A model generated the notes under the pieces. The model worked only from the letters and a program-made list of their open reading frames with translations, searched no databases and was not told the DNA's origin. From an uncultured Pygmaiobacter sp. (GTDB lineage: Bacteria; Bacillota; Clostridia; Oscillospirales; Ruminococcaceae): 29,708 bases of DNA. Positions 50 to 15,616 of the stretch are shown here, one piece after another. How positions within the stretch are numbered: position 1 is the first letter of the stretch; each line of letters begins with the position of its first letter. The stretch is taken from the NCBI GenBank assembly GCA_944386485.1, contig CALXBG010000028.1:1-29708 (forward strand). The letters run 5' to 3'. A program made the position numbers and the translations under genes.

Positions 50-124
50 GGCCCGATGGTCAAGAGGTCAAGACACCACCCTTTCACGGTGGTATCCCGG
101 GTTCGATTCCCGGTCGGGTCACCA
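50..124 (+). tRNA. tRNA-Glu (anticodon UUC), 75 nt including encoded CCA
   Basis: Folds by hand into a cloverleaf. Acceptor GGCCCGA pairs with TCGGGTC (one G-U). Anticodon stem CCACC/GGTGG carries loop CTTTCAC, giving anticodon TTC. T arm is CCGGG-TTCGATT-CCCGG, followed by discriminator A and CCA at 122-124. Confidence 0.93.
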
Positions 125-326: not shown

Positions 327-355
327 TTGAACTGCATAGAAAATAACGCTATTAT
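327..355 (+). promoter_or_regulatory. Candidate sigma-A promoter of the 415-8167 operon
   Basis: -35 TTGAAC (327-332), 17-nt spacer, -10 TATTAT (350-355). It sits in the only AT-rich stretch upstream of the first gene. RBS AGGAGGGG lies at about 400-407. Confidence 0.45.
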
Positions 356-414: not shown

Positions 415-1836
415 ATGGCGCTTTTTGATGTAATTGAGTATGAGGGTTCCGGCGAAGTTCTGATCCACCGGGCCGCACAGACCGATTTCAATACCCACAG
501 CACACTGGTGGTGCGGGAGTCCCAGAAGGCGATTTTAATCCGCAATGGACAGCTGGCGGATATCTTTGATCCCGGACGGTATGTGTTGCACACCCAGAAC
601 ATTCCCATCCTCAGCAAGCTGGTCAACCTGCCCACCGGCGGGGTGTCTCCATTTCAGTGCGAGGTCTACTTCATCAACCAGGCAATCTCCCTCAACCGCA
701 AATGGGGAACCAGTAGTCAGGCGCGGGTTTACGACCACACCTATGATCTGATCCTCACCATCGGTGCAAACGGCGCGATGGGGCTGCGGGTGCGGGATCC
801 GCGGCAGGTGCTGCTCTCGGTGGTCGGGACCGAGCCGGATCTGACCGGGGATCAGTTCCTGGACTATTTCCGGGACACCATCTCGATGAAGATCAAGGAG
901 TACATCGCACGGGTTATGCAGCGCCCTGAGATTGACTTTATGGTGCTTGACGCAAATCTCAGCGAGTTTTCAAACCAGGCCAAGGCTTTGCTCAACGAGG
1001 AGCTTGCCGAATACGGGGTGGAGATCTGCAACTTTTCAATCAGCAACATCCAGATTCCAGACGAACAGTATGAGGCGGTCTTGGTGATGCAGAACAAGCG
1101 TCATCTGCAGCGCCAGCGGGAGTTTGAGATGAAAGGCGACCTGAACCTGCAGATGATGAAGGCACAGGGGGATCGCGCCAGCCTGATGGTGGACGCCCAG
1201 GGAGAAAACGAGCGGCGCAAACTACAGGCGCTCACCGACGTCGAGATCGCGAATCTGCAGATCGACGTCGACGCTCACCGCACCGAGCGGATGGCGCAGG
1301 CTGAGGCGCGCGCCCGGGCTGTGCAGGGTTACAACTGGGCAGATCAGCAGCAGGCCGAGGTGGCGAAACTCTACGCTGCATCCGGCAGCCTGCAGAACAA
1401 CCCCGCCAATATGTTGGCGCAGGCGCCGATGGCGCTGGCCTTCGGAGATCTGCTTCGAGACAATGTCGAGCCGGTGATGAATCCCAACTACTCCAATCCC
1501 GGAATGAACTTCGGCAACGGGTTTCCCGGACAGAGCGGCGGGGAACAGCACAGCCCGTCCGGCGGCTTTGGCGCGCCGGAGGATTTCTCCCTGGGCATCG
1601 AGCCGGCCGACCCCACGACACCGGCCGACCCCACCGCACCGGAGGCACCGGCCGAACCGGCGGTGGCAGCGATCTGTCCGAACTGCGGCGCTTCGCTTGC
1701 CGGCAGCCCGAAATTCTGCCCCGAGTGCGGCACCCGACTGGCGCCGGCCGAGCCGGTGCGGTGTGGTTGCGGTCATCTCTTTGGGCCAAAAGAAAAGTTC
1801 TGTCCCGAGTGCGGCAGCCCCCGCCCCGGCGTCTAA
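415..1836 (+). CDS. SPFH/Band-7-like protein (YdjI / COG4260-like) with a Pro/Ala-rich linker and two C-terminal zinc ribbons
   Basis: 473-aa ORF with RBS AGGAGGGG. The N-terminal ~230 aa resemble the COG4260 'virion core protein-like' SPFH family (DVIEYEG...LIHR...V.ESQ.A....G...D...PGRY.L). A coiled-coil segment follows (QRQREFEMKGDLNLQMMKAQ...). Then comes the linker ADPTTPADPTAPEAPAEP. The two CxxC ribbons are CPNCG..x..FCPECG and CGCGH..x..FCPECG (about 1675-1818). Confidence 0.85.
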   Translation: MALFDVIEYEGSGEVLIHRAAQTDFNTHSTLVVRESQKAILIRNGQLADIFDPGRYVLHTQNIPILSKLVNLPTGGVSPFQCEVYFINQAISLNRKWGTSSQARVYDHTYDLILTIGANGAMGLRVRDPRQVLLSVVGTEPDLTGDQFLDYFRDTISMKIKEYIARVMQRPEIDFMVLDANLSEFSNQAKALLNEELAEYGVEICNFSISNIQIPDEQYEAVLVMQNKRHLQRQREFEMKGDLNLQMMKAQGDRASLMVDAQGENERRKLQALTDVEIANLQIDVDAHRTERMAQAEARARAVQGYNWADQQQAEVAKLYAASGSLQNNPANMLAQAPMALAFGDLLRDNVEPVMNPNYSNPGMNFGNGFPGQSGGEQHSPSGGFGAPEDFSLGIEPADPTTPADPTAPEAPAEPAVAAICPNCGASLAGSPKFCPECGTRLAPAEPVRCGCGHLFGPKEKFCPECGSPRPGV

Positions 1837-1905: not shown

Positions 1906-3849
1906 ATGGCGGTATTCAACTGCAAGATGTGTGGGGGCGACCTCGAGGTGATCGACCCTGAAAACGGATTGGCACAGTGCGAGAGCTGCGGCAAGAAGCA
2001 GACGTTGCCAAATGAACAGGATGAGCGGAAGGCCAATCAGTTCAACCGGGCCAATCACTACCGGCGCAGCAATGAGTTTGACCGGGCGGCGGACGCCTAT
2101 GCCAAGATTCTGGACACCGATCCCGGCGAGGCGGAGGCCTATTGGGGCATCGTGCTCTGCCGGTACGGCATCGAATATGTAGAGGATAAAAAGACGATGC
2201 GCCGGGTGCCGACCTGCCACCGCACCCTGACCCGCTCAATCCTGCAGGACCCCGATTACCTGCAGGCGCTCTCCTGTGCAAAGCCGCTGGCCCGGCTGCA
2301 GTATGAGGAGGAGGCGCAGGAGATCGACCGGCTGCAGAAAGAGATTCTCGCGCTGGCGAGTAAGGAGGAGCCGTTCGATATCTTCATCAGCTACAAGGAG
2401 ACCGACGAGCGCAGCGGTCAGCGCACGCCTGACAGCGTGTTGGCACAGGAGATCTACACCGCGCTGACGCGAGAGGGATACAAGGTCTTTTTCTCCCGCA
2501 TCACGCTGGAAAACCGGCTCGGACAGGATTACGAACCGATCATCTACGCCGCGCTGCGCTCAGCGAAGGTGATGGTGGCGGTGGGTACCCGGCCGGAGTA
2601 CTTTTCGGCTCCCTGGGTGCGCAACGAGTGGAACCGCTATCTCGGGATGATGGAGGAGGCGCAGGGCGGCAAAACCCTGATCCCGGTCTACCGGGAGATG
2701 GACCCTTACGACCTGCCGGAAGAGTTCTCCCATCTGCAAGGGCTTAACGCCGCCAACATCGGCTTTTTGCAGGATCTGCTGCACGGCATCGAGAAGCTGA
2801 TCCGGCAACCCGCGCAGCCGGCCGCAGCCGCAGCGCCGGCTGCGCCGTCGGGTGGAGCCAATGTGGAATCGCTGCTGCAGCGGGTGGATTTCTTCCTCGA
2901 GGACGGCAGGTTTGACAGCGCGCGGGAGTACTGCAACCGGGTGCTGGACATCGCCCCGACCGATTGGCGGCCCTATCTGGATCTGGTGCTCTGTGCGAGA
3001 CAGCAGCGCACCGCCGCGGCCCTTGCCGCGCAGGAGTCCAGCATCCACACCGACGAGAATTTCCAGAAGGCGCTGCGGTTTGCACCAAAGGAAAAAAAGG
3101 AGGAGCTGATCGGCTACGCGGCCGCGGCCTTTGCTGCCGAGCAGAGCAAGGTCGAGGAACTCTGCGCCGCCGAGCAGCAGAAGGAAGAGGGCTTGTTGCG
3201 TGAGTTGAAACCGCTCGAAGAACAGCTCGCACAGCCGCTGGCGCAGCTGCGGGAGAAAAAACAGAAGGCCGACGAGCTCGGGCGCCAGATTGCAGAGGAG
3301 GAAAAAAAGCAGCAGGAAGCGGCGGCGCAGAAGGCCCAGCACTACAATGTCAAACAGGCGCTGTATCAGAAATATAAACAAGAGAACGCAAAGGGCAATG
3401 TGGTCGAGGGCAATCTATTTGGCGATCTGGTCGGCTCTTTGATCCTGGCCGCGATCTGTTTTGTCATCGGGCTGATCGCCGGGGCGCTGTTCTTTCCACT
3501 AGGGGTCATCATCTGGGTACTGGGCGGAATTTCGATTCTTTTTTCGAATGTACAGACATATAGAAACAGGGAACTTCAGACCGACAGAAAAGAATACCAA
3601 AAACAGGGGAAAGAGGCCAAAAAGGCGCTGACGAAAGAGATGTCCAGTAAGCTGAAGGTGCAGTCGCTGGTCAAAGAAAAAAATCGATATGATGTTGAGA
3701 GCAACCAGATTTATCAGGTCAACAAGGCGCCGATGGATCAGCGCGCTGCGCTGATCCGACAGATCAACGACTGCAGAGAGAAGGTGCAGCAGAGCAAGCG
3801 CAGCCAGGAGGAGAATCTCAAATTGGCGCAAAAGATAGGGATTGTCTGA
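1906..3849 (+). CDS. TIR-domain protein: N-terminal zinc ribbon, TPR-like repeat, TIR, second TPR-like repeat, coiled coil, TM hairpin, charged coiled-coil tail
   Basis: 647-aa ORF with RBS GAGGAGGAAAA upstream. Zinc ribbon CKMCGG..x..CESCGKKQTLP at 1921-1989. TIR signature FDIFISYKETDE ... KVFFSR ... SAPWVRNEW spans about 2371-2790, with the candidate catalytic Glu241 codon at 2626-2628. Hydrophobic hairpin LVGSLILAAICFVIGLIAGALFF-PLGVIIWVLGGISILF at about 3421-3546. K/E/Q-rich coiled-coil segments flank the hairpin. Confidence 0.85.
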   Translation: MAVFNCKMCGGDLEVIDPENGLAQCESCGKKQTLPNEQDERKANQFNRANHYRRSNEFDRAADAYAKILDTDPGEAEAYWGIVLCRYGIEYVEDKKTMRRVPTCHRTLTRSILQDPDYLQALSCAKPLARLQYEEEAQEIDRLQKEILALASKEEPFDIFISYKETDERSGQRTPDSVLAQEIYTALTREGYKVFFSRITLENRLGQDYEPIIYAALRSAKVMVAVGTRPEYFSAPWVRNEWNRYLGMMEEAQGGKTLIPVYREMDPYDLPEEFSHLQGLNAANIGFLQDLLHGIEKLIRQPAQPAAAAAPAAPSGGANVESLLQRVDFFLEDGRFDSAREYCNRVLDIAPTDWRPYLDLVLCARQQRTAAALAAQESSIHTDENFQKALRFAPKEKKEELIGYAAAAFAAEQSKVEELCAAEQQKEEGLLRELKPLEEQLAQPLAQLREKKQKADELGRQIAEEEKKQQEAAAQKAQHYNVKQALYQKYKQENAKGNVVEGNLFGDLVGSLILAAICFVIGLIAGALFFPLGVIIWVLGGISILFSNVQTYRNRELQTDRKEYQKQGKEAKKALTKEMSSKLKVQSLVKEKNRYDVESNQIYQVNKAPMDQRAALIRQINDCREKVQQSKRSQEENLKLAQKIGIV

Positions 3850-3928
3850 ACCGATGCGCCGTGAGACAGGGGGGCAGCACAAGGCCGAAAACCCTGTGCT
3901 GCCCTTTGAGAAAGGATGTGGGGGAAGG

Positions 3929-6580
3929 ATGCCGCAGTTTGTGCCGATCCCGCTGAAAAACGGGCAGGTTTTGGGCTGTGTCGCCTATGAGATCACCTCG
4001 GTGCCGCAGGCATCGCAGGAGGGCGCAGCGGCGCAGACGGAGAATGAGACCGCTTTTTACAATCTGCTGGGCGAGGTGTACCGCTACTGCGCACCGGATG
4101 CGGCGGTGCTTGAGCTGCTCTGGTCGGCTCAGCCGGTCGAAAACCAGCCCCATGCGGCCCAGCTGCATCTGTACGCGGTGGCGCGGATGCTCTGCGCCGA
4201 CCGCAAGGAGCTGGAAACCCGGCTGCAGGCAGTCTGCGACAACCTGACCACCCGGTTGCAGGCCGGCGGCTTTCGGTTTGCCGAGGCCGACCTCGAGGCG
4301 CTGCGACCCTTTCTGCCTGACGGCGCCGCCTGTGTCAACGCGGTGACCAAAGCGGAACAGTGCACGTTGCACCCGCAGGCCGCCTTCCCTTATTATTATG
4401 CCGAACCGCTGCCCGAGCACGGCACCGACGATTTTGCGATGCTCAGCCGCACGATGGCCGAGCTGCCGGGCAGCGCGGTTTCGTTTCAGCTGTTGCCCAC
4501 CGGCTATACCGCCGCCGAGAGCGCCGCGTTGGAACAGATGCAGTCGCTGCTGGCCCAGGTTGTCGGGGGCACCACGATCGGCGGGCGGGCCTACCGCGAC
4601 CCGCTGGCCCAACCGGCGCTGGACGCGATCGGCCATACCGCCGCCCGGCTGCGCCAACCGGTCTTTCGCTACAACATCCTCGCCTTCGGCAACCAGAGCC
4701 AATGCGCGGCGCTGACCGCGCAGATCATCAGCCTGCTGCGCTGTGGCAGTGCCCGCAGCTTCGTCACCGTCAACCTCAACGCCGAACGGTTGGATCTGCG
4801 CCGCCAGTTCGCCTGGTATCCCTGGCAGATCAACCAAAAATTGTTGCGCGGTTACCGCAATACCCAGCTCTGGAGCCGGGTCAAGCTGCCGCAGGCCCTG
4901 TTTCGACTGCCGATGCTGCTCGGCGCCGAGGAGGCGACCACCTTTTTCCGACTGCCGCTGGGGGGCGACAAGCTCGCCGGATTGCCCAGCCACAGAGCGT
5001 TGCAGAATGCCCAGCAGCTCGACCCGCGGGTGGTTGCGGGGGAGAACCTTCAATTCGGGATACTGGCGGGGGGCGTCGCGCCGATCGGCTGCCCGCCCAA
5101 GAATCTGACCAAGCACATGTTGGTGGTCGGCAAACCCGGTACCGGAAAGACCACCTTTTCGGTCAATCTTCTGTTGCAGCTCTACCAGAAGGGGGTTCCC
5201 TTTCTTGCGATCGAGCCGACCAAAACCGAGTATCGGGCGATGATCGACGCCATCCCGGATCTGCAGATCTTCACCCCCGGCAACAACGGGGTCAGTCCCT
5301 TTGTCATCAATCCGTTCATTCCGCCCAAGGGGATCACCGTCGAGCAGTTTGTGCCCAGCCTTGCCAGCGCATTCAAGGCGGCATTCTCGATGCCGTCCCC
5401 GCTGGACACCATCTTTCAGGCCGCGATTCAGGAGGCGTATGTCCAGTATGGTTGGCGGGATTACAGTACCGCCGCCGACCCGGACGTCACCCCGTTCGGG
5501 CTGCACGAGTTTATCCTCGTGTTCAAGAATCTCATCGCCCGGGAAAAGTACAGCGCCGAGGTCAAGGGCAACCTGCAGAGCGGCGGTGTGTTGCGGCTGC
5601 GCAACCTGATTGAACAGAATGCCAACATCTACGACACCACCCACTCGGTGCCGCTGGAGGATCTGCTGGTGCACCCCACCGTGCTGGAACTCAACGCGAT
5701 CGACAATGAGGAGCAAAAATCGGTGCTGATGGCGCTGCTGCTCATCAATATCTGCGTTTATACCAAGCACAACCATCTGGGAGACGGCAAGCTGAAGAAC
5801 GCGATTTTGATCGATGAAGCGCATGTCCTCTTCAAGGCGGGCGGATCCAGCGAGGGGGCGAACACCACCGTGCGCTCACTCGAAAATATGCTCGCCGAGA
5901 TCCGCTCCTACGGCACCGGCATCATCATCGCCGACCAGTCCCCGGCGGCAGTCGGAGCCGAGGTGGTAAAGAACACCGAGGTCAAGACGGTGTTTCAGCT
6001 GGTTGACGTCGGCGACCGCAAGACCATCGCCGCCACCACCAACATGACCGCGGAACAGGAGGAACAGATTCCCCGGCTCGGGGTCGGCGAGGCGTTTATC
6101 AGCTATGGCCTGCTGGCCGAACCGGCGCTGGTGCAAACCCCCGATGTGCGGGAGGAACAGGGGATCCGGCTGAGTGTCTCGAACGAAGAGGTACACCGCC
6201 GGATGACCTATTGGGACAGCCACGGGCCGCTGTTGATCCCGTTTTACGAGTGTGGACAGTCGACGGTCTGCGCCGGCGGCTGCGATCTGCGGCTGCGCAG
6301 CGATGCGGCCTTCTTCGCGGCGCGGTTTGCCCAGAGCTACGGCGGCAAGATCACCGACGCGAAGAGCCTGTGCGCCTATGCCCGCGCCCTCGACGGCTGG
6401 CTGGATGAGCAGACCCCGCAGAGCGACCCGGAACGGCGGCGCCGGCTGCACAACTGCACCAAGATCCGGCTGATCCGCCGGATGATGCAGCAGCGGGAGA
6501 TTCCGCAGAGCCCCGCCGCCTATCAGAAACTGCTGCAGGCCGCCCTGGCCGAGGGAGCCGCCCCGCAGCCCGAAGCATAA
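3929..6580 (+). CDS. HerA/FtsK-superfamily P-loop ATPase (DUF87-like) with a ~400-aa uncharacterised N-terminal region and a Cys-containing C-terminal tail
   Basis: The long ORF opens at TTG 3842. I prefer ATG 3929 (MPQFVPIPLK...) because it is preceded by the purine-rich RBS AAAGGATGTGGGGGAAGG. ATG 3854 is a further alternative. Walker A VVGKPGTGKTT at 5129-5155. Walker B AILIDEAH at 5801-5824. HerA-type context is present: PFLAIEPTKTEY and IIIADQSPAAV...VKNTEVKTVFQL. Confidence 0.8.
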   Translation: MPQFVPIPLKNGQVLGCVAYEITSVPQASQEGAAAQTENETAFYNLLGEVYRYCAPDAAVLELLWSAQPVENQPHAAQLHLYAVARMLCADRKELETRLQAVCDNLTTRLQAGGFRFAEADLEALRPFLPDGAACVNAVTKAEQCTLHPQAAFPYYYAEPLPEHGTDDFAMLSRTMAELPGSAVSFQLLPTGYTAAESAALEQMQSLLAQVVGGTTIGGRAYRDPLAQPALDAIGHTAARLRQPVFRYNILAFGNQSQCAALTAQIISLLRCGSARSFVTVNLNAERLDLRRQFAWYPWQINQKLLRGYRNTQLWSRVKLPQALFRLPMLLGAEEATTFFRLPLGGDKLAGLPSHRALQNAQQLDPRVVAGENLQFGILAGGVAPIGCPPKNLTKHMLVVGKPGTGKTTFSVNLLLQLYQKGVPFLAIEPTKTEYRAMIDAIPDLQIFTPGNNGVSPFVINPFIPPKGITVEQFVPSLASAFKAAFSMPSPLDTIFQAAIQEAYVQYGWRDYSTAADPDVTPFGLHEFILVFKNLIAREKYSAEVKGNLQSGGVLRLRNLIEQNANIYDTTHSVPLEDLLVHPTVLELNAIDNEEQKSVLMALLLINICVYTKHNHLGDGKLKNAILIDEAHVLFKAGGSSEGANTTVRSLENMLAEIRSYGTGIIIADQSPAAVGAEVVKNTEVKTVFQLVDVGDRKTIAATTNMTAEQEEQIPRLGVGEAFISYGLLAEPALVQTPDVREEQGIRLSVSNEEVHRRMTYWDSHGPLLIPFYECGQSTVCAGGCDLRLRSDAAFFAARFAQSYGGKITDAKSLCAYARALDGWLDEQTPQSDPERRRRLHNCTKIRLIRRMMQQREIPQSPAAYQKLLQAALAEGAAPQPEA

Positions 6581-6592
6581 AGGAGAAACGCG

Positions 6593-8167
6593 ATGTGGGA
6601 CGAAGAATTTGACAGCGATCTCGACACCGGAAGCGACGTCGATTGCGATGTCGACGACGGCGGTTATGACCTCGATGACAGCGGATCCGATCTGCAGGTC
6701 AATCTTGACGAGAGCGTGGATTTCGATCTTGCCGATGTCGAACCGGCCGAACCCGCGGATCTCGATCTGGATGCAGAAGACTTTGAGGAACCCGCGGCGG
6801 ATCTGCCGGTGGAGCTCGAGGATGCCGGCGATCTTGCCGACGGCATGGCGCTGGATGAGGTCGAGGTGGCCGACCTCGGCGATCCCGAGGAGGAGCCGTC
6901 CGCCGGCGGCGAAATCAGCGATGAGCTGCTCGAGGCTTGGATGCAGGCTGAGCAGGAGGGGATACAGGAGTCCGGCGAAGAGGACGTCAAGGTACTGCGC
7001 CGGGATCCGGATGAGCTGATGGAGACCGGGATGCAGAATGTCGAGGAAATCCTCGACGTCCGCCGCGACGACATGATGGATAAGGGGATGAGCGAGGAGG
7101 AGATTGAGCAGGCAATCGCACAGGAGCGGGAGGCGCTGCGGTGGGAGTTTGTGCAGGACGCCTTCCCCGAGCGGTTTGAAGCACAGGAGCCCGAAGAGCT
7201 CGAAATGGAAGAGACAGCCGACCTTGCAGTAAAGGAAGAGAACGACACCGAAGAGGTTACCGATCTTGCAGCTGCACAGGATCTCGACCTGGAACAGGAT
7301 GAGGCGGATGCCCTGGAAACAGAATCGGAGGAGCTGGATGAGACGGCGGATACAGGGCTTGAGGGGACTCAGGTGACAGACGCCGATCTAGAGGAGGAAA
7401 CCGAGCCGGAGGACGATCTCGCCGAGCCGCTGGAGGAAGAGGAGATTTCCGAGCCGCTGGCAGAGGAACTGTCAAAAACCGAGCTGGAGGATACGGCGCT
7501 GCCCGAAGACGTTTCGGATGAGGAGGAAGAAGCGCCCGATCTGATGCGGGAGCTGGTGCGGCAGAATGTGCAGGACGTCCGGCTGCCGCGAGAAGGCGGC
7601 ACCTGGGCCGACCCCGCGCAGGCGGGGGAGGGGCTCTGGATACCGGACGACGATGCCGAACTCTTCTGGAAGGAGGAAGCCGGCGGCTCGATGACCGGCG
7701 CCGAGTTCAAACAGCGGTATGGGGTCGAGGGGGTGACCTACCGGGACGGAGAACCGGATTTTGAACCGTTCGAGGACGAACTGTTGGGCCATGTTGAACT
7801 GGAGGAGATGCCGACCGAGCGCACCGGGGCAGAGGGCAGCTATGCCGCCGCAACCCGCGCCGCCGCCGACCGGCTCGGAATCAGCGAGCAGGAGGTCGAG
7901 CAGCGGATGGAGGAGCGGGGGTTGACCTGGCACGAATGTGGCGACCGGCGAACGGTGCGGGCGATTCCGACCGAGGTCAACGCCGCGTTTCCCCACACCG
8001 GCGGAATCAGCATCCAGCGCGGCGTGCGGGCGATGGCGGAAGAACTAGCCGACCGGTATGGAACCGTGCGGCTGGATCGCAACGGCCCTGCCGGAACAAC
8101 CGAAGGGTTGACCGAGGCCCGCGGTGCCGTCCGGAGGGAATACCGTGGACAAAAGCGGAAGCTGTGA
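6593..8167 (+). CDS. Hyper-acidic protein with a C-terminal HNH/EndoVII-fold (WHH / GH-E-like, polymorphic-toxin type) nuclease domain
   Basis: 524-aa ORF. RBS AAAGGAG lies 6 nt before the ATG and 12 nt after the ATPase stop codon. 42 of the first 100 residues are D/E and none is K/R (counted by hand). The C-terminal region GEPDFEPF...GHVELE...LTWHECGDRRTVRAIPTEVNAAFPHTGG (about 7748-8020) follows the PDF...(Y)TWHH...LVP..H....HTGG layout of HNH/EndoVII toxin domains. The domain call is from memory of the family pattern, not from a search. Confidence 0.7.
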   Translation: MWDEEFDSDLDTGSDVDCDVDDGGYDLDDSGSDLQVNLDESVDFDLADVEPAEPADLDLDAEDFEEPAADLPVELEDAGDLADGMALDEVEVADLGDPEEEPSAGGEISDELLEAWMQAEQEGIQESGEEDVKVLRRDPDELMETGMQNVEEILDVRRDDMMDKGMSEEEIEQAIAQEREALRWEFVQDAFPERFEAQEPEELEMEETADLAVKEENDTEEVTDLAAAQDLDLEQDEADALETESEELDETADTGLEGTQVTDADLEEETEPEDDLAEPLEEEEISEPLAEELSKTELEDTALPEDVSDEEEEAPDLMRELVRQNVQDVRLPREGGTWADPAQAGEGLWIPDDDAELFWKEEAGGSMTGAEFKQRYGVEGVTYRDGEPDFEPFEDELLGHVELEEMPTERTGAEGSYAAATRAAADRLGISEQEVEQRMEERGLTWHECGDRRTVRAIPTEVNAAFPHTGGISIQRGVRAMAEELADRYGTVRLDRNGPAGTTEGLTEARGAVRREYRGQKRKL

Positions 8168-8170
8168 ATA

Positions 8171-8220
8171 AAAAGAGCCGGGATCTTGGACCGTCACGCC
8201 CAAGATCCCGGCTCTTTCTT
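8171..8220. terminator. Bidirectional rho-independent terminator between convergent genes
   Basis: Perfect 16-bp stem: AGAGCCGGGATCTTGG (8174-8189) pairs with CCAAGATCCCGGCTCT (8200-8215). An A-run lies upstream and TTCTT downstream, so it can serve both the + strand operon and the minus-strand HAD gene. Confidence 0.8.
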
Positions 8221-8235: not shown

Positions 8236-9069
8236 TCAGCGGTCGGCGGGGCGGGTCATCCGCACCGCGGCGAAACCGGCCAGCAGCGGCAGAGCCACAC
8301 AGGCCGCGACGCCTGCTGCGTTGCCAACGAACAGAAAGTAGATCAGTCCGACTAGCCCAACCAACATCAACAGTACCGAAAAGAGTGCAAGACCGCGGCG
8401 CAGCCCCTCGGCTCGATTTCGACTAAGTACGGCGGTCAGAACGTCTTCAGGCACGGCTGCGATCTGCTGGGCACCGGCCGCTTCCAGCTCATCGGCGTCT
8501 CGAAAACCCCACAGTACGCCGCAGCTTGCGGTTTTGGCATTCTGGGCGGTGTGGATGTCGACGTTGCTGTCCCCGACATAGAGTACCTGATCGGGATGCA
8601 GCCCAAAGTCAGCGATTACGCGATTGAGTGCGGCGGGATCGGGTTTAACCAGCGTACCCTGCTGGCCCGCAACCGAGTCGAAAATGCCGGGGAAGTATTG
8701 TTCAACGATCTGGGTGACAAATTCATGTGGTTTGTTTGAGACCACGCCGAGCCGAATCCCTTTAGCTTTAAGGGCGGTCAGCAGCTGTGGGATGCCGGGA
8801 TAGGGAACGGTGCAGTCCCGCATATGGGCCTGATAATGGGTGTCAAACAAACCGCTTGCCCGCTCGACGGCGGATTCATCGGTTCGCAGCTGCTCAGGCA
8901 GCATCCGCAGAATCAGATTGCGTCGTCCATCTCCGACAAGGTGCTTGTATTCCTCCACGGTGTAGGTGGGCAGCCCCATCTCGGTCAGCGCAAAATTGCA
9001 GGCATTGGCAAGATCCTCGATGGTGTTGAGCAGAGTGCCGTCGAGGTCGAAAATCACAGCTTTGATCAT
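8236..9069 (-). CDS. HAD-superfamily phosphatase (phosphoglycolate phosphatase/PpaX-like) with a C-terminal hydrophobic hairpin
   Basis: HAD motif I is present: MIKAVIFDLDGTLLNT. Later motifs are VVSNK and YVGDSNVDI. I chose the ATG at 9069 because a perfect RBS (AAAGGAG) lies 9 nt upstream. The track's GTG at 9090 abuts that RBS. The last ~55 aa are two hydrophobic segments: LALFSVLLMLVGLVGLIYFLFVG and VAACVALPLLAGFAAV. Confidence 0.85.
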   Translation of the reverse strand: MIKAVIFDLDGTLLNTIEDLANACNFALTEMGLPTYTVEEYKHLVGDGRRNLILRMLPEQLRTDESAVERASGLFDTHYQAHMRDCTVPYPGIPQLLTALKAKGIRLGVVSNKPHEFVTQIVEQYFPGIFDSVAGQQGTLVKPDPAALNRVIADFGLHPDQVLYVGDSNVDIHTAQNAKTASCGVLWGFRDADELEAAGAQQIAAVPEDVLTAVLSRNRAEGLRRGLALFSVLLMLVGLVGLIYFLFVGNAAGVAACVALPLLAGFAAVRMTRPADR

Positions 9070-9121
9070 AAAAACGTACTCCTTTGGCACAGCCGAACGA
9101 TGTTCGGCCAGAATATTTGGT

Positions 9122-10498
9122 TCAGAGATTGAATTCTAACTCCCGCGCCCGGAAAAACTCGATACCGCGCAGATGATAGGTCCGGCGGGTGGGAGTGAAG
9201 ATCCGCAGATCACATCGCCCAGCAGAGGCAGCGGTCGGGAACCGGGTGATCAAAAGGGAGAGGTCATCGGTATAGAGTGAGACCAGATACCGGGTGAACC
9301 CACGGCAATAGCTGACCGAAAGGGTGCGGTTTTCATTGCGGCAAAACCCCTCACGGAAAAAACCCTCAAGACTGCATAGCAGAGCGCCTAGTGCGAGCAG
9401 AGCCAAAATCCAGAGCAAAAAGCTCACCTGCGGCAGCACCCGCAACGAGACGATTCCCAGCGAGAGAACCAGAATCAGCAGCGAGCCGGGTTTCCACAGA
9501 TACTGCGGCAGGCTTTTGCGGCGGGGATTGCACAGCGGCCGGTCAGGCGGGCAAAACTCGGGCAGCAACTGGCGCAGCTGTGGGACACTTTTTTTGCTCA
9601 GGGTAAAGATTGGCAGGTCCTCACCGCGAAAGCAGCCCGCGCTCAGATAGACCGGGCAGCGGCGCAACAACCGTGCGGCCGGGGTAATTCGCAGACTGCT
9701 GGCGGTAATCGCGTCGACAAAGACCCGCCGTTCGGTATGGGTCAAAAGACCGCCTCGGCTGAGCAGCACACCACCCGAGCGGGCGGCGGTAAATCGGTAG
9801 GTCCGCAAAAGGCTGTTGAAAAGAGAAAGGGCGAAGACCAGCAGCCCTATCGTTACCACAAGCGAAGCGCCTGCCGGCACAAAAGCGGTCAACAGATGCT
9901 CCAGCCGGGTGATCCCGTCGATCGCGAGTGCCCGAAAATCCTCCCCGAGAAGAGAAAAGATTCGGCGGGCGGAAAGAACCGAAAAAAAGGCGGTGGCGAT
10001 CACATTTGCCGACAGCAGCATGAAGAAAAGCCGTTCGGCCCCGACCGGAGTAAAGGCACTCGCCGCAGCGGCATCAGGCACCAGACGGCGGGCAAGCCGA
10101 CGTGCCTGACGGGCGGATAGGGTGATTTTGATTCTGCGCAGACCGCTGCCTGCGCGAAAATAAATGGTCAACACCGAGGCCCCGAACAGGCGGCAGAGAA
10201 GGTTGCGCTGTAACTCCACCGCGCTCACCTGCGCGGTAGAGGTGCGGTTGCAGCGGCGCAGCAGAACACCACTTCGAATCATCAGTACACCGTCGGTCAA
10301 TGAGAGGGAACTGGCTCGATGCATTGCCGCCAAAATCCCACCGCAGGCAAGCAAGATGGCAAACTCCTGCATCAGGGTTCGCCAGGCGGAAAAAAAGGCA
10401 AAATCCAGTACTGCCTGCAAGACCGGCAGCAGGCAGAGCAGCAGAAAGTACTTGACATATTTTAGAAAATGCAGCGGGTGTAATCGAATGGGGTGCAT
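9122..10498 (-). CDS. YdbT-like membrane protein with repeated bacterial PH (bPH_2) domains
   Basis: The start at 10498 (MHPIRLHPLHFLKYVKYF...) overlaps the upstream stop codon in an ATGA junction. TM helices alternate with PH-like segments, for example SLSLTDGVLMIRSGVLLRRCNRTSTAQVSAVELQRNLLCRLFGASVLTIYF. Size and pairing match the ydbS-ydbT arrangement. Confidence 0.75.
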   Translation of the reverse strand: MHPIRLHPLHFLKYVKYFLLLCLLPVLQAVLDFAFFSAWRTLMQEFAILLACGGILAAMHRASSLSLTDGVLMIRSGVLLRRCNRTSTAQVSAVELQRNLLCRLFGASVLTIYFRAGSGLRRIKITLSARQARRLARRLVPDAAAASAFTPVGAERLFFMLLSANVIATAFFSVLSARRIFSLLGEDFRALAIDGITRLEHLLTAFVPAGASLVVTIGLLVFALSLFNSLLRTYRFTAARSGGVLLSRGGLLTHTERRVFVDAITASSLRITPAARLLRRCPVYLSAGCFRGEDLPIFTLSKKSVPQLRQLLPEFCPPDRPLCNPRRKSLPQYLWKPGSLLILVLSLGIVSLRVLPQVSFLLWILALLALGALLCSLEGFFREGFCRNENRTLSVSYCRGFTRYLVSLYTDDLSLLITRFPTAASAGRCDLRIFTPTRRTYHLRGIEFFRARELEFNL

Positions 10499-10914
10499 CA
10501 ATCCTCGCCTCCCGTCAGCAGTGCGGTTTGCAGCCGCTCGCTGTCCGCAGGTGATAACCCGATCAGAATTACCGTCGCGCCCGAGGTAAAAACGACCATC
10601 CCGCAGGCGCCCAGCAATCGGCCCAGCGGGGTGGAGAAGGTCCACACACCGGTCACGCTCCGCAGCGGAACCCGGCGCAGCGTGCGGTAAAAAAAGCCCC
10701 GCTCAACCGAAAATTCTCGCCCGCTTACCCGCACCCGGTACCCTAACTGGTGCAGTAGTGCGAGTCCCACCGAAGCCAACGTGCCGCAGAGAAAGACAAC
10801 CAATGCCGCTAGCCAGTTCCAAAATAACCAGAGCAGAAAACCGCAAACCCCAAACAGGCCGGTCAGCCAGAGAGCAGCCAGCATCGCGCCTTTTCGGGTT
10901 ACGGTATAATTCAT
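10498..10914 (-). CDS. YdbS-like PH-domain (bPH_2) membrane protein
   Basis: Start ATG at 10914 (MNYTVTRKGAMLAALWL...). Two TM helices are followed by VSGREFSVERGFFYRTLRRVPLRSVTGVWTFSTPLGRLLGACGMVVFTSG, which is typical of the bPH_2 family. The upstream 120 codons of the track ORF overlap the preceding gene and were rejected. Confidence 0.75.
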   Translation of the reverse strand: MNYTVTRKGAMLAALWLTGLFGVCGFLLWLFWNWLAALVVFLCGTLASVGLALLHQLGYRVRVSGREFSVERGFFYRTLRRVPLRSVTGVWTFSTPLGRLLGACGMVVFTSGATVILIGLSPADSERLQTALLTGGED

Positions 10915-10945
10915 AAGAAATACTCCATTTAGTATAAAAACTCGG

Positions 10946-12349
10946 TTACCAGGTTGGATCAATTTCCTGCCCGTCCTGCAGATTCGAGAGCACGGAGAGC
11001 AAACGGGAAAGATAACTGCTGCGAACAGCGTACTGTGCGGTTCCATCAATCTCGATCGCATGCCGCTTGACGCCATAGGGGATAAACCGGATGACCTCGG
11101 TACGGTAGCCGGAGTCCGGCAGCTCAGGGCCGGCAAGCGGCTCGTCGTAAACAAAGGTGATGACCGCGTCGGGCGGAATGTTCTGCATCGGGTCTTCCAT
11201 CTCATATTCCGCCCGCAGCGAGCAGAGTAGACGGTAAAACTGCTCGAAGGTCTCCTGTGAGAGAAATTCTCCATTGAAAGAAACGCTGGTTTCGGTCAGG
11301 TCGAACAGATAGGTTTGCCCGGACGCCTCGATCTGAATCTCCCGCAATGTATCCAGCGCGGGTGCCATCAGATACCGGCTCATCAGCGCATAACGGGTCA
11401 CCCCGATCCAATGAGCTTCGCTCAGATTAAGGCGATAGACTGCGGGGACCCCTTCACGATACAGATAGTAGAAATTGCCGGTAAAATTACCAATCCGCAG
11501 GGTGACGCTCTGGCCCAATAAGGTGAAAGAAAGGGTGGAATAATCGCTTTCATCGGACAAGCCATACTCTTTCAGTTCAGGTTCGCTGGGATAAAGGGTC
11601 ACCACACCATCGGCCCGCAGCGTGCTGAGCTGGTCAAAATAGGTCGTAAAGGCATCGGGGTCAACGTAGCTCAGCCGATCCCCAGCCAGCTGATAAGAGT
11701 AGCTCAGTTCCATCCCGTCGGTCTGGGGGATGGGCAGACGGTCCAGCCGCAGCGTCTGACCGTTTGTGGTCCACTCGATACTGCTGGGCAGCGCATTGCC
11801 CGCTTCCTCTACCGGAGAGAGGGAGAGATCCAGATAACTGCTGATATCAGACAGCAGATACCGGATGCTGCTGCGCCCGATCTGGTAGACCGTGTTCCCG
11901 CCGTTGACCCGGATATAGTATTGATCTGTTCCGGTAATCTGTGCACCGACCTCGATGGAGATTCCGCCCCCGTCGGAATAGGTGGCCTGCGCCTGTGCGA
12001 GAGGAAAATCAAATCCGTAGTCGATCGGTGCGTCGGGATCCTGCACCAGCGGGCCGACTGCCGTCAGGCTGGTACACTCCCGCGCCAGCTCGTCGCAGGC
12101 AGACTGCGAGAGAGGAAATCCGGCAAGCCGGTCACAGGAATAGACCCCGTCTTCTGCGGTGACCGAATAGGCGCCGCCGGCATTGATAATCTCGACCGAG
12201 GCGAAGGCGTTCTGTGCCCGGTCCGAGAGGGTGACCTCGGTCGGTGCTTCGCTGCGGGAAGAGGGGAAAAATAGCGATAGCGAGACGGCGAGGACCCCAA
12301 GCACCGTAAAGGCGAGCAGAGAGGTAAAAAATTGTTTGTTGATCTTCAT
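10946..12349 (-). CDS. N-terminally anchored extracytoplasmic protein (DUF4340-like; family assignment tentative)
   Basis: 467-aa ORF. ATG at 12349 with RBS GGAGG 6 nt upstream. N-terminal signal/anchor MKINKQFFTSLLAFTVLGVLAVSLSLFF. The remainder is hydrophilic and beta-rich, with no catalytic motif that I recognise. Confidence 0.7.
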   Translation of the reverse strand: MKINKQFFTSLLAFTVLGVLAVSLSLFFPSSRSEAPTEVTLSDRAQNAFASVEIINAGGAYSVTAEDGVYSCDRLAGFPLSQSACDELARECTSLTAVGPLVQDPDAPIDYGFDFPLAQAQATYSDGGGISIEVGAQITGTDQYYIRVNGGNTVYQIGRSSIRYLLSDISSYLDLSLSPVEEAGNALPSSIEWTTNGQTLRLDRLPIPQTDGMELSYSYQLAGDRLSYVDPDAFTTYFDQLSTLRADGVVTLYPSEPELKEYGLSDESDYSTLSFTLLGQSVTLRIGNFTGNFYYLYREGVPAVYRLNLSEAHWIGVTRYALMSRYLMAPALDTLREIQIEASGQTYLFDLTETSVSFNGEFLSQETFEQFYRLLCSLRAEYEMEDPMQNIPPDAVITFVYDEPLAGPELPDSGYRTEVIRFIPYGVKRHAIEIDGTAQYAVRSSYLSRLLSVLSNLQDGQEIDPTW

Positions 12350-14020: not shown

Positions 14021-14071
14021 GAAGGTACAAAATTCCTCAGAATGAAAACAGGATCAAAAGGAGGGAGTCAG

Positions 14072-15616
14072 ATGAACTGTCCCAATTGTGGCAATCCCGT
14101 TTCAGAGGGAGCTTCTTTCTGCCCGTTGTGTGGGTCAAGGGTGAATGCGGCGTTGTCTGCACAGCACCAGGAACAGTCGGCGCCGGGCAATCCGGTACAG
14201 CCGGTGCAAGGGGAGAGCGGCCCGCAGACGGCCGCGCAGCAGGGCAATGACCAGTCTGGCTATACGCAGCAGAGTTACCCGCAGCAAGGTTACACGCAGC
14301 AGAGCTATGGCCAGCAAAGCTACACCCAGCAGAACTACGGCCAACCGGGGTATGGCTACAATCAGCCGGATATGGGACCGCAGCGGCCGGTCAGTCCCTA
14401 TTATCAGCGGCAGTTTGCCCTGATCGCGCAGGGCCAGCGCAGCCGGTTTAACTGGGCGGCTTTCTTTCTCGGGCCGTATCATGCGGTCTACCGCGGTCAT
14501 ACCAAGCGGTTTCTCGCCCTTTACCTGCCGCTGCTGATCCTGACCTTGGTCAACGAGGTCGCGCTGATTGCGGCATTTGGAGCGAATAACCTTTCTCTGA
14601 TCGGGATCACGGTGATTCTCAGCTGGGTTATCTCCCTGGTTTCCATCGGCCTTGCGATCTATAATGGACTTACCTTTAATAAAAGCTATTTTGCCCTCTG
14701 TGGCGGTGACCCGCGGGTGCCATCCTGCGGCGGACGGCTTGCCGTGACCATCATCACGGTGACGCTGGTCAGCATTGTGGCCGCGGTTGCCCTTTTCGGC
14801 GTCATGATGAACCAGGCGTTCAGCCAGCTGGAAAATTTGGGTGAGTATCCCTTCGATAACTCTTACGTTGAGCAGCTGCCCCCTGACGGTACCGTGCCGC
14901 AGGGCGGACAGCAGGAGCCGCAGACCGGTTCGCAGTCCGCTGTGACCGGCGGTACACAGGATATTACCGGGCTGCTCGTTGATTACGGCGACGTCGTCGC
15001 CGATCAGCTGTACCTGCTGGGCTGGAACGACCCTGATATGACCGAGGCGGAGCAGATTGTCAACAGCGCTTATCTGTTCCGCTCGGATAAGGTGAGCATG
15101 ATTGACGCCCTCAGCACCGCCTCGCAATCGATCTACTGGGAGGAGGTACAGCCCAGCGAAACAGTTTTTGAAGGAGCCAGATATTTTTCCGTCTACTGTA
15201 CGCTGGAAGAGGGAGACATCGTCTTTGACTTCGCCATCGGCGGGGGCAATGTGATGGTTTTCGGCTGCTATGTCTGGGAGGGCGAGAACTATGTCGGGCT
15301 GAATGAGCAGCAAGCTTCTGCGTTGCTGGAAGCTCTGTACAGCCGGGCGGGCGTACCCCAGTCGATTCCCTATCAGGCGCGCGGAAGCTGGCGGACCTCT
15401 GCCGGTGAGGAGTTCGTGCTGGATGGCGAGACTCTCAACGGACAGCCCTATACCCTCTGGTTTATGAGCGAAGATATTCTTGCGGTCTATCTGGACAACG
15501 TCGAGGGAGTAGAGGGCGAGTATTACATGATGATAGAGGGCCCGATCCTCAATGTCTGGCAGTACGACGCGAGCGGGGCGATCATCAACGATCTGTACTA
15601 TACAAAAGCCAACTAA
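14072..15616 (+). CDS. Zinc-ribbon / Q,Y-rich repeat / DUF2628-like multi-TM protein with a C-terminal extracytoplasmic domain
   Basis: ATG at 14072 with RBS AAAGGAGGGAG upstream. The track start at 14042 lacks an RBS. N-terminal ribbon MNCPNCGNPVSEGASFCPLCG. YxQQx pentapeptide repeats follow. RFNWAAFFLGPYHAVYRGHTKRF is DUF2628-like. Three or four TM helices precede a ~270-aa soluble tail. Confidence 0.8.
   Translation: MNCPNCGNPVSEGASFCPLCGSRVNAALSAQHQEQSAPGNPVQPVQGESGPQTAAQQGNDQSGYTQQSYPQQGYTQQSYGQQSYTQQNYGQPGYGYNQPDMGPQRPVSPYYQRQFALIAQGQRSRFNWAAFFLGPYHAVYRGHTKRFLALYLPLLILTLVNEVALIAAFGANNLSLIGITVILSWVISLVSIGLAIYNGLTFNKSYFALCGGDPRVPSCGGRLAVTIITVTLVSIVAAVALFGVMMNQAFSQLENLGEYPFDNSYVEQLPPDGTVPQGGQQEPQTGSQSAVTGGTQDITGLLVDYGDVVADQLYLLGWNDPDMTEAEQIVNSAYLFRSDKVSMIDALSTASQSIYWEEVQPSETVFEGARYFSVYCTLEEGDIVFDFAIGGGNVMVFGCYVWEGENYVGLNEQQASALLEALYSRAGVPQSIPYQARGSWRTSAGEEFVLDGETLNGQPYTLWFMSEDILAVYLDNVEGVEGEYYMMIEGPILNVWQYDASGAIINDLYYTKAN
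14261..14350 (+). repeat. Six tandem 15-nt (pentapeptide) coding repeats, Y-[TPG]-Q-[QP]-[SGN]
   Basis: The units are TATACGCAGCAGAGT, TACCCGCAGCAAGGT, TACACGCAGCAGAGC, TATGGCCAGCAAAGC, TACACCCAGCAGAAC and TACGGCCAACCGGGG. All are in frame with the CDS. Confidence 0.8.

Follow-up and report, generated by a model that had tools for sequence, protein, structure and literature searches.

Toxins of the WHH family (Tox-WHH; Pfam WHH), such as Vibrio RhsP-WHH (PDB 8bd1) and Yersinia YPO3609, possess HNH/EndoVII nuclease domains in which the HH dyad binds metal through its first His and directs the hydrolytic water through its second, and two His residues in the helix complete the metal site (PMC3113570). 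Functional WHH domains bear one Trp and four His residues, and mutation of the fourth His abolishes activity (PMC13515810). In the type VII secretion systems (T7SS) dedicated to LXG/WXG toxins (EssC/YueA), a constant N-terminal module precedes variable toxin domains and an FtsK-HerA-superfamily ATPase is encoded beside them (PMC3113570). Effector-associated domains (EADs) are small N-terminal adaptors that couple many effectors to a core NTPase system (Kaur et al. 2020, PMC7159879). In the HerA-effector anti-phage systems, namely Sir2-HerA ("Nezha"), DUF4297-HerA, TdpAB, and DndFGH, a HerA-type ATPase stands beside an effector. We here analyze the gene at positions 6593-8167 in a stretch of 29,708 nt from an uncultured Pygmaiobacter sp. 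(contig CALXBG010000028.1, 29.7 kb; the whole stretch is termed the window below), which encodes a WHH-family nuclease preceded by a long acidic region (termed the leader below). We regard the finding as a polymorphic effector probably coupled to a HerA-family ATPase, with a nuclease domain of a new type (WHE) within a known toxin family. The explanation we favour, held with about as much doubt as confidence, is that the open reading frame (ORF) 6593-8167 encodes the interchangeable effector subunit in a conserved conflict operon of four genes, in which the leader couples effectors to the ATPase.

The gene is the last of four co-directional genes, each of which has its own ribosome-binding site, with junctions of 13-80 nt.

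415..1836, + strand: gene 1, SPFH protein (Band_7_1, 156 bits) with a C-terminal double zinc ribbon (DZR, 32 bits), 473 aa
1906..3849, + strand: gene 2, zinc ribbon-TPR-TIR protein (TIR_2, 53.8 bits; TPR) with a transmembrane (TM) hairpin at residues 499-536 and coiled coils, 647 aa
3929..6580, + strand: gene 3, soluble DUF87/HerA_C P-loop ATPase (HerA/DndH/VirB4-like), 883 aa
6593..8167, + strand: gene 4, leader plus WHE-nuclease effector, 524 aa (ATG ORF)

The nuclease gene starts 13 nt after the ATPase gene, and a Shine-Dalgarno-like AAGGAGA lies 8 nt 5' of its ATG at 6593. The longest ORF of gene 3 starts with TTG at 3842 (912 aa), while the ATG at 3929 gives the 883-aa protein. A first-pass annotation, made from the letters of this DNA, dealt with the nuclease gene and overlooked both the ATPase gene 13 nt upstream and the four-gene operon. 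The order of SPFH, TIR, ATPase, and acidic nuclease was found again in L011, L091/92, L109, L112, L113, L116, and L122 (collected loci are referred to by their L numbers), and the acidic tails in these recurring gut-metagenome loci are 305-405 aa long with net charges of -116 to -160. Among the 14 flanked loci with an acidic-tailed WHE nuclease, the ATPase was present in 12, SPFH in 11, and TIR in 7. The genes are ordered ATPase-nuclease-SPFH in L004, and in L090, a complete genome, the nuclease gene and the SPFH/ATPase cluster converge. Because order and orientation differ in these two loci, the linkage survives rearrangement. The relatives are Clostridia from gut metagenomes; the operon is common in gut Clostridia and present in Coriobacteriia as well. 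Island-like neighbours were seen repeatedly, namely the tRNA gene in the window, CRISPR-Cas in L175, hipBA in L174, and integrases in L173 and L088. In many sister loci, a membrane protein of ~230 aa (~4 TM segments and a helical tail) is encoded beside SPFH/ATPase (L175:3139-3822; L174:7282-7974; L173:2132-2824; L178:7314-8000; L099:10667-11356; L102:10674-11360). The window has no separate gene for it, and the C-terminal part of the window TIR protein, which we considered as its counterpart, showed no similarity to it.

The leader of the 524-aa protein comprises three parts.

6593..6976, + strand: part 1, residues 1-128, the tip MWDEEFDSD and then a K/R-free poly-acidic stretch predicted to be disordered (pLDDT ~40)
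6977..7180, + strand: part 2, residues 129-196, helical hairpin VKVLRRDPDEL...ILDVRRDDM.DKGM...EF.QDAFPE (pLDDT 94-98)
7181..7522, + strand: part 3, residues 197-310, a second poly-acidic stretch predicted to be disordered, serving as linker (composition, pLDDT ~40)

In the AlphaFold2 model, residues 1-107 are disordered and followed by a short helix, the hairpin (139-196; pLDDT 94-98), and another disordered region (200-310); the acidic stretches have no secondary structure at a pLDDT of ~40. Of the first 100 residues, 28 are D and 14 are E, so that the count of 42 D/E with no K/R given in the first-pass annotation was reproduced. The first basic residue is K133, leaving residues 1-132 free of K/R, and residues 1-320 contain 129 D/E versus 12 K/R (net -117). 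Against the composition of the ten other window proteins (K+R 10.3%, D+E 11.9%), a K/R-free run of 132 residues has a P of ~6e-7 and at least 42 D/E per 100 residues a P of ~3e-14. The same annotation described an N-terminal half that is acidic, of low complexity and K/R-free throughout; the strong acidity stands but the uniformity does not, as the hairpin (129-196) contains K/R. The hairpin is well conserved, with 18 invariant columns in 7 sequences. Part 3 varies widely in length among relatives, and the acidic region as a whole ranges over 95-405 aa in close relatives. Related proteins start with an aromatic residue set in acidic ones (MCDEGFDS, MDEGFET, MDEYFES, and MGDEYS), from which the consensus M-x-D/E-D/E-x-F/Y-D can be drawn. 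The tip motif was found in 21 of the 31 acidic-leader proteins described below versus 5% of control ORFs, a difference that is supportive only, as relatedness of the sequences and their composition favour the motif.

Such variation in length, together with amino-acid repeats in some relatives (P0001, L011, L085, and L090), would be expected if the acidic half were a functionally neutral low-complexity expansion. We regard this explanation as very improbable. Divergent proteins keep the extreme exclusion of K/R (P ~6e-7), both tip motif and hairpin are conserved, and the feature is confined to the SPFH-TIR-ATPase system. Moreover, Tandem Repeats Finder detected no DNA repeats in the acidic region, and the copy in the window has no repeated 5-mers.

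Several minor observations concern the leader. ORFs consisting of a leader only (92-167 aa) follow the ATPase gene in three loci (L171:10631-11017, L179:10691-10969, and L103:922-1425). That of L103 (..DAKVLRR) ends exactly at the start of the hairpin module, and that of L171 (..QKVYVKTYPR) may do likewise. They could be decayed effectors, assembly frameshifts, or true orphan leaders. The tip motif is not shared with the short canonical nucleases, of which only 8 of 70 matched it; these (P0056-P0134) have a conserved N-terminal tip of their own, MSNPF[FG]PE. Judging from these sequences, nucleases paired with this branch of the ATPase superfamily may generally start with a peptide that contains Phe.

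The strongest evidence for the leader being a module in its own right came from its cargo. From the ATPase side, we sampled six diverse homologs sharing 43-56% identity with the window ATPase (L171, L173, L174, L175, L178, and L179). SPFH and TIR genes were present in all six loci, and all six possessed an ORF with a K/R-free acidic leader and the tip motif, either in the place following the ATPase gene or adjacent to that place.

L175: tip MDEGFDSGGFD, cargo Endonuclea_NS_2 (103 bits)
L178: tip MDEWNEGMDD, cargo Endonuclea_NS_2
L174: tip MDDFGDGAEGFDD, cargo Gln_amidase "papain fold toxin" (42 bits), net charge -170
L173: tip MCDMDMDYEMELD, cargo DUF6782-like HExxH metallopeptidase domain
L171 and L179: acidic tip, leader only

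The hairpin of the L173 effector aligned with that of the window protein (hhalign E-value of 1.8e-5). Two acidic-leader effectors are encoded beside one ATPase gene in L090, where the first 100 residues of a 701-aa HExxH protein include 42 D/E but not a single K/R. Among the 1958 ORFs of at least 100 aa in all the collected loci, an acidic-leader N-terminus was found in 31 distinct ones; 25 of them are WHE nucleases, and the other six are all within ATPase clusters. When the 68-residue hairpin alone was searched against 1.84 billion representative proteins (E-value ≤1e-3), 63 proteins were matched. The 52 matches scanned for cargo carried Gln_amidase (15), WHH/Colicin-DNase (5), DUF6782 (4), and Endonuclea_NS_2 (2), while an HExxH motif was found in 23 of 60 matches and a K/R-poor acidic N-terminus in 38 of 60, with tips such as MDEEFDS, MGDEFDD, and MSEEFDSY. 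Leader and hairpin are a constant N-terminal module followed by variable toxin domains, the arrangement of polymorphic toxin systems (Zhang et al. 2012). As the same leader is borne by glutamine-deamidase (Gln_amidase), metallopeptidase-like, and NucA-type nuclease (Endonuclea_NS_2) domains, it is not specific to the nuclease; it is the shared N-terminal module of a polymorphic effector family, in which the nuclease is a minority cargo. EADs work through homotypic pairing, the core protein and the effector each having the domain. In contrast, the ATPase, SPFH, and TIR proteins here showed neither leader nor hairpin, and the leader is largely disordered and polyanionic.

Two further loci bear on the placement of acidic regions. 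In L082:2720-6338, adjacent genes encode paralogous acidic N-termini (MERFNEGDERNEI and MEKFNESDERNEI); one of the proteins ends in a WHE nuclease and the other (723 aa, net -114) in a different C-terminal domain. In L085:9137-11570, an 811-aa WHE protein, whose gene adjoins an SPFH gene and at which the contig stops, has its 367 aa of acidic repeats (EQAEQE..., net -150) C-terminally, not N-terminally.

The rest of the protein comprises the nuclease and the regions flanking it.

7523..7735, + strand: pre-core region, residues 311-381, the helix ..VRQNV.. and then the beta elements LP..GG.W......W.PDD (pLDDT >90)
7736..8014, + strand: HNH/EndoVII core of the WHH family (WHE variant), residues 382-474
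8015..8164, + strand: clade-specific C-terminal extension, residues 475-524, two helices and the basic tail ..RREYRGQKRKL

The first-pass annotation had proposed a toxin-type HNH/EndoVII nuclease, citing the string GEPDFEPF..GHVELE..LTWHECGDRRTVRAIPTEVNAAFPHTGG with H447, N463, and H468, all of which are present as claimed. The domain assignment was borne out by Pfam, in which WHH (PF14414) matched the full protein with 33.7 bits and residues 380-524 with 36.0 bits, above the gathering cut-off of 25.1; short WHE relatives reach 68 bits against the same profile. Colicin-DNase (PF12639) matched residues 382-470 with 30.2 bits (cut-off 25), covering positions 3-96 of the 96 in the profile, and the treble-clef HNH/EndoVII fold of the solved WHH toxins was recovered. 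The core motif comprises W446-H447-E448 (nt 7928-7936), D451, N463, H468 (nt 7994-7996), and G470-G471. The core itself is acidic (net -19, pI 4.4). In the model, the helices of the C-terminal extension span residues 471-489 and 506-523. The pre-core region is kept in both long and short members of the family, with W338 and G345 being near-invariant.

We collected 140 distinct WHE nucleases with surrounding DNA through genome and metagenome scans and protein searches. Short forms account for 99 of them (~190 aa, with a non-acidic N-terminus of 20-110 aa and no C-terminal extension), and the 41 long forms, including that in the window, share the 50-aa C-terminal extension. Across 70 aligned members, T445-W446-H447-E448, T454, P459, H468, and G470-G471 are invariant and C449 and D451 nearly so. 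The WHE domain also tips RHS-repeat proteins (L083 and L080), LXG-like proteins (L075 and L086), and a 3430-aa protein (L078). In comparison with the Tox-WHH toxins, the second His is replaced by an invariant Glu and, in this clade, the third by Asn; neither an RHS, LXG, or PAAR domain nor a signal peptide is found here, the acidic leader taking that position; and the protein has no adjacent immunity gene and bears the C-terminal extension.

Of the signature of one Trp and four His, W446, H447, and H468 are kept, while E448 stands for the second His and N463 for the third. The first-pass annotation noticed both substitutions, which are real, and suggested altered or lost catalysis. An inactive pseudo-nuclease, in which WHE and N463 abolished catalysis and the domain serves as a DNA-binding or structural module, would account for the lack of an immunity gene. 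The window protein retains only the first and fourth of the four His found in functional WHH domains (PMC13515810), and the second is the one that activates water (PMC3113570). We nevertheless consider this possibility quite improbable. WHE is invariant across hundreds of proteins, with H447, E448, D451, H468, and the GG pair being conserved, and the experimentally critical fourth His is kept. HNN-type members of the superfamily accept Asn as metal ligand at the helix position, which also counts against loss of activity. Since the same domain tips RHS, LXG-like, and 3430-aa proteins, its distribution argues that the WHE domain is still a toxin with Glu at the general-base position, and 58 of the 64 flanked short forms keep a DUF6985 gene (see below), arguing for retained toxicity. 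WHE is a conserved subfamily signature rather than decay, and the nuclease is best filed as the WHE subfamily of the WHH clade. The label "HNH endonuclease" given to these genes masks a toxin subfamily with Glu replacing the general-base His.

Nucleases with duplicated domains, one copy being degenerate, were found in L088:10001-11842 (P0043; LEWRDDGNG) and L031:9863-11398 (TWHEGGD without HxGG). P0043 has a long helical N-terminus too, and FtsK_SpoIIIE, FHA, kinase, and AAA+ genes are nearby.

In 84 of the 99 short forms, the nuclease gene is followed by a gene of 110-160 aa matching Pfam DUF6985 (PF22481), e.g., L024:10450-10911 and L022:10447-10818. DUF6985 was also found downstream of the RHS-borne WHE toxin of L083 (4421-4942; 54.7 bits), the 3430-aa protein of L078, and a 674-aa protein of L055. 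Because it lies downstream of short, RHS-borne, and giant WHE toxins alike, DUF6985 is the probable cognate immunity protein of WHE nucleases, and this family thereby gains a probable role. None of the 41 long forms has DUF6985 downstream. As the first-pass annotation had stated, the window nuclease has no adjacent immunity gene; the downstream gene is convergent and past a strong hairpin (8173-8216). Neither a DUF6985-like nor an ac160-like ORF was found in the window, in which the DUF6985 profile and 111 immunity-type queries gave chance-level matches only, so that the cognate immunity gene expected downstream of a polymorphic toxin (Zhang et al. 2012) is not seen there. Between non-acidic long-form nucleases and the ATPase lie genes for helical proteins of ~160 aa, mostly strongly acidic (net -4 to -29), as in L010:10691-11173, L013:10826-11317, and L088:11895-12380. 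These proteins have no relationship with either DUF6985 or the hairpin module (hhalign probability of 0.2% for the latter). In L001-L003 (Dorea sp.; 10001-10786), a 261-aa member of the clade with a mildly acidic N-terminus is encoded between trmD and rplS, with a small coiled-coil ORF downstream and no ATPase gene nearby (>100 contigs); the small ORF was rejected as DUF6985, likewise the ~160-aa proteins.

The first-pass annotation proposed that the acidic half masks the nuclease until displaced or cleaved, acting in cis as a DNA-mimic autoinhibitor or as built-in immunity. The absence of DUF6985 agrees with this proposal (0/41 members of the C-extension clade versus 84/99 short forms), and every strongly acidic tail lacks a downstream DUF6985. 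Acidic regions were apparently acquired independently (C-terminally in L085 and in another subclade in L082), and the non-acidic members in L010, L013, and L088 have the separate acidic ~160-aa protein instead. On the other hand, the leader is mostly found on enzymes that do not act on DNA (deamidase and metallopeptidase-like domains), which speaks against the cargo being its target and leaves masking of a nuclease unsupported as its main role, and the adjacent proteins of L082 combine the same acidic N-terminus with different C-terminal domains. The core, with its net charge of -19 and pI of 4.4, offers no obvious basic surface for a polyanion to mask. A strong net negative charge (-117 over residues 1-320) is shared with Ocr-type DNA mimics, but the acidic stretches are predicted to be disordered rather than forming a folded scaffold that displays carboxylates as in Ocr. 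Furthermore, L164 carries both an acidic N-terminus and DUF6985, and the anti-correlation with DUF6985 is based on few independent evolutionary events. The likeness to colicin Im, barstar, ICAD/DFF45, and Ocr lies in a highly acidic polypeptide accompanying a nuclease that lacks a separate immunity gene; these are folded and target-specific, whereas the leader is mostly disordered, sits on an acidic core, and occurs on non-nucleases as well. Altogether, we find nuclease-specific built-in immunity rather improbable, although the leader may have a self-restraining effect as a secondary function.

Gene 3 encodes the constant neighbour of the leader-bearing effectors. Its structure is closest to those of DndH-C, HerA, VirB4, and the defence-type HerA-effector complexes; the scores were 27.0 for the DndH C-domain, 26.9 for Sulfolobus HerA, 26.7 for VirB4, and 24.0 for HerA-DUF4297, followed by TdpA (21.4), Nezha HerA (20.8), FtsK (17.6), and EccC/EssC (14-17.5). 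The ATPase has no TM segment, and its N-terminal region of ~380 aa differs from those of the HerA-effector systems. It fails the HerA models, with 27.6 bits against a cut-off of 800 for NCBIfam HerA_antiphage (NF042943) and a partial match to the PADLOC HerA model (E-value of ~1e-8), the best PADLOC match being mad8 (1.7e-18). Neither PADLOC nor NCBIfam gave a match to the nuclease, and the other operon proteins had sub-threshold or partial matches only in the two collections. In phage records, only two weak partial matches to the ATPase were found. The operon resembles the HerA-effector systems in having a HerA-type ATPase beside an effector, and differs from them in its interchangeable acidic-leader effectors and its SPFH and TPR-TIR partners, with no Sir2 or DUF4297. 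A distant homolog of the ATPase (28% identity over 88% coverage) was found in L176, a Priestia megaterium plasmid (NZ_CP064271.1, 106849-113322), followed by a highly acidic repeat protein of 1135 aa (net -203), which is not K-free. The pair may be a remote version of the ATPase/acidic-protein pairing in a cultured Bacillus relative.

VirB4 being an equally good structural match, the operon might be a toxin-delivery system, in which the ATPase, SPFH, and TM/TIR proteins pump leader-bearing toxins out of the cell or into neighbours, by analogy with the FtsK-like EssC and its LXG toxins, and the polyanionic leader is a secretion signal. A constant N-terminal module on variable C-terminal toxin domains follows the logic of polymorphic toxins (PMC3482391), and WXG/LXG toxins are exported by FtsK-HerA pumps (PMC3113570). 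RHS, LXG-like, and 3430-aa toxins end in this WHE domain and are followed by DUF6985, several of the leader-bearing effectors have a small ORF after them, and L088 has FtsK_SpoIIIE and FHA genes nearby. However, sibling cells would be left unprotected, as no immunity gene is found in the 29.7 kb; the ATPase lacks TM segments, and a channel-forming component is not apparent. The Pfam scan of the 524-aa protein detected no LXG/WXG, RHS, PAAR, or TPS domain, its N-terminus has neither a hydrophobic segment nor a signal peptide, and the operon lacks the LXG/WXG domain and the multi-domain FtsK-like EssC of T7SS. The multiple TPR-TIR genes and defence-island neighbours fit immunity better than export. 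We therefore judge a delivery system to be unlikely, though a serious rival.

We favour instead the four-gene operon working within the cell, and from its parts and context it is most likely an anti-phage or abortive-infection system. Defence inside the cell is preferred because of the TPR-TIR paralogs, the island-like neighbours, the kinship of the ATPase with defence HerA proteins, and the absence of an immunity gene from the window. As the leader occurs on unrelated effectors encoded beside the same ATPase family, we propose that it would serve the ATPase as a handle for recognising, holding, and deploying the cargo. A HerA-type ring, with its DNA-binding channel or surface, would be well matched to a polyanionic, unstructured leader, and the ATPase, the constant neighbour, could be the DNA-binding target of the leader. 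Control by the ATPase would then replace the separate DUF6985 immunity protein of the leaderless short nucleases. The sequences themselves show which domains are present, that the leader is shared as a module, that it is genetically linked to ATPase, SPFH, and TIR genes, and that DUF6985 is absent. From these we infer direct binding of the leader by the ATPase; its threading through the ATPase pore, the trigger of deployment, and an effector that stays in the cell rather than being exported are speculative.

Several points weigh against this explanation. Some acidic-tailed nucleases, such as that of L007, stand alone, with no ATPase gene within 10 kb. The effector domains belong to the toxin repertoire and fit export as well as defence, and ORFs of 69-98 aa after some leader-bearing effectors are possible immunity genes, which fit export too. 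Built-in immunity would likewise predict the leader-bearing C-extension clade to lack DUF6985 strictly, as it does. The change from His to Glu makes catalytic competence presumptive, and the operon proteins remain sub-threshold in PADLOC and NCBIfam. A bolder version of the proposal, in which a nucleic-acid-moving ring of the HerA/VirB4 type instead engages a polyanionic leader mimicking a nucleic-acid strand and so constitutes a new deployment system, is tentative and, in our opinion, on the doubtful side. The ATPase with the SPFH scaffold and TPR-TIR protein would, in that case, release the toxin inside an infected cell or export it, and the leader, common to a polymorphic toxin set, would represent a new class of signal for trafficking or recruitment in a new defence or secretion system.

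If the leader is indeed a handle for the ATPase, the two would be a new pair of signal and motor, and the operon a multi-gene conflict system abundant in human and animal gut bacteria. Effectors could then be found by a sequence rule, i.e., the tip motif, a K/R-free acidic stretch, and the KVLxRD hairpin. SPFH scaffolds and TIR proteins would be tied to HerA-type ATPases, and a peptide polyanion replacing nucleic acid on a translocase would become a testable case. Neither the operon nor the leader was found described in PADLOC 2.0, NCBIfam, Pfam descriptions, or open-access papers and preprints, and Kaur et al. (2020) give no description of the operon.

The leaderless short forms belong to a widespread and strikingly conserved sister operon of seven genes, known here from Bacillota, Proteobacteria, Bacteroidota, Fusobacteriota, and Planctomycetota and comprising a WYL regulator gene, two dynamin-like GTPase genes, one or two genes for small membrane proteins, an ATPase gene, the nuclease gene, and DUF6985. 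Among 64 flanked short-form loci, the ATPase was present in 59, dynamins in 55, and DUF6985 in 58. Their ATPase is FtsK/HerA-like, ~1100 aa long, and has a glycine-zipper membrane region. This operon resembles that of the window only in the motor core of the ATPase (27% identity over 359 aa) and the WHE nuclease directly after it, and differs in having dynamins and WYL instead of SPFH/TIR and a ~190-aa nuclease with neither leader nor extension, with DUF6985 in 58 of 64. The hosts include Paenibacillus, Lachnospiraceae, Psychrobacter, Pasteurellaceae, Prevotella, Fusobacterium, and Planctomycetota. Examples are L024:1116-10911, L022, L035, and L177, the last being the conjugative dairy plasmid pB26B of Lactococcus cremoris (NZ_CP032437.1, 40013-50518), where the operon lies beside an Abi gene. 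A paper on the lactococcal plasmidome contains no functional test of the pB26B operon. In open-access papers and preprints, we found no description of the dynamin-type operon and no mention of DUF6985, nor of DUF87 together with dynamin.

The features bordering the operon in the window are as follows.

50..124, + strand: tRNA-Glu(TTC) (ARAGORN), just 5' of the operon, the left edge of a small island
130-165: terminator-like hairpin
327..355, + strand: sigma-70-like promoter candidate TTGAAC-17-TATTAT (9/12, consensus match only)
8173..8216, no strand assigned: bidirectional terminator-like hairpin between the operon end and the HAD hydrolase gene (dG -34.1 kcal/mol, z -5.8)
8236-9090, - strand: convergent HAD hydrolase gene (HAD_2, 124.6 bits)

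The remaining genes of the window are housekeeping ones. Two membrane proteins with bacterial PH (bPH_2) domains are encoded by genes with overlapping ends at 9122-11274 (- strand), and a second 524-aa protein, in which only an N-terminal zinc ribbon can be recognised, at 14042-15616 (+ strand); neither has an apparent link to the operon. Within the operon, the 80-nt gap between the TIR and ATPase genes contains a GC-rich inverted repeat followed by TTT (3869-3904), whose predicted folding (dG -30.2, z -1.9) surpasses that of shuffled sequences by a small margin only; it could be an attenuator or a processing site.

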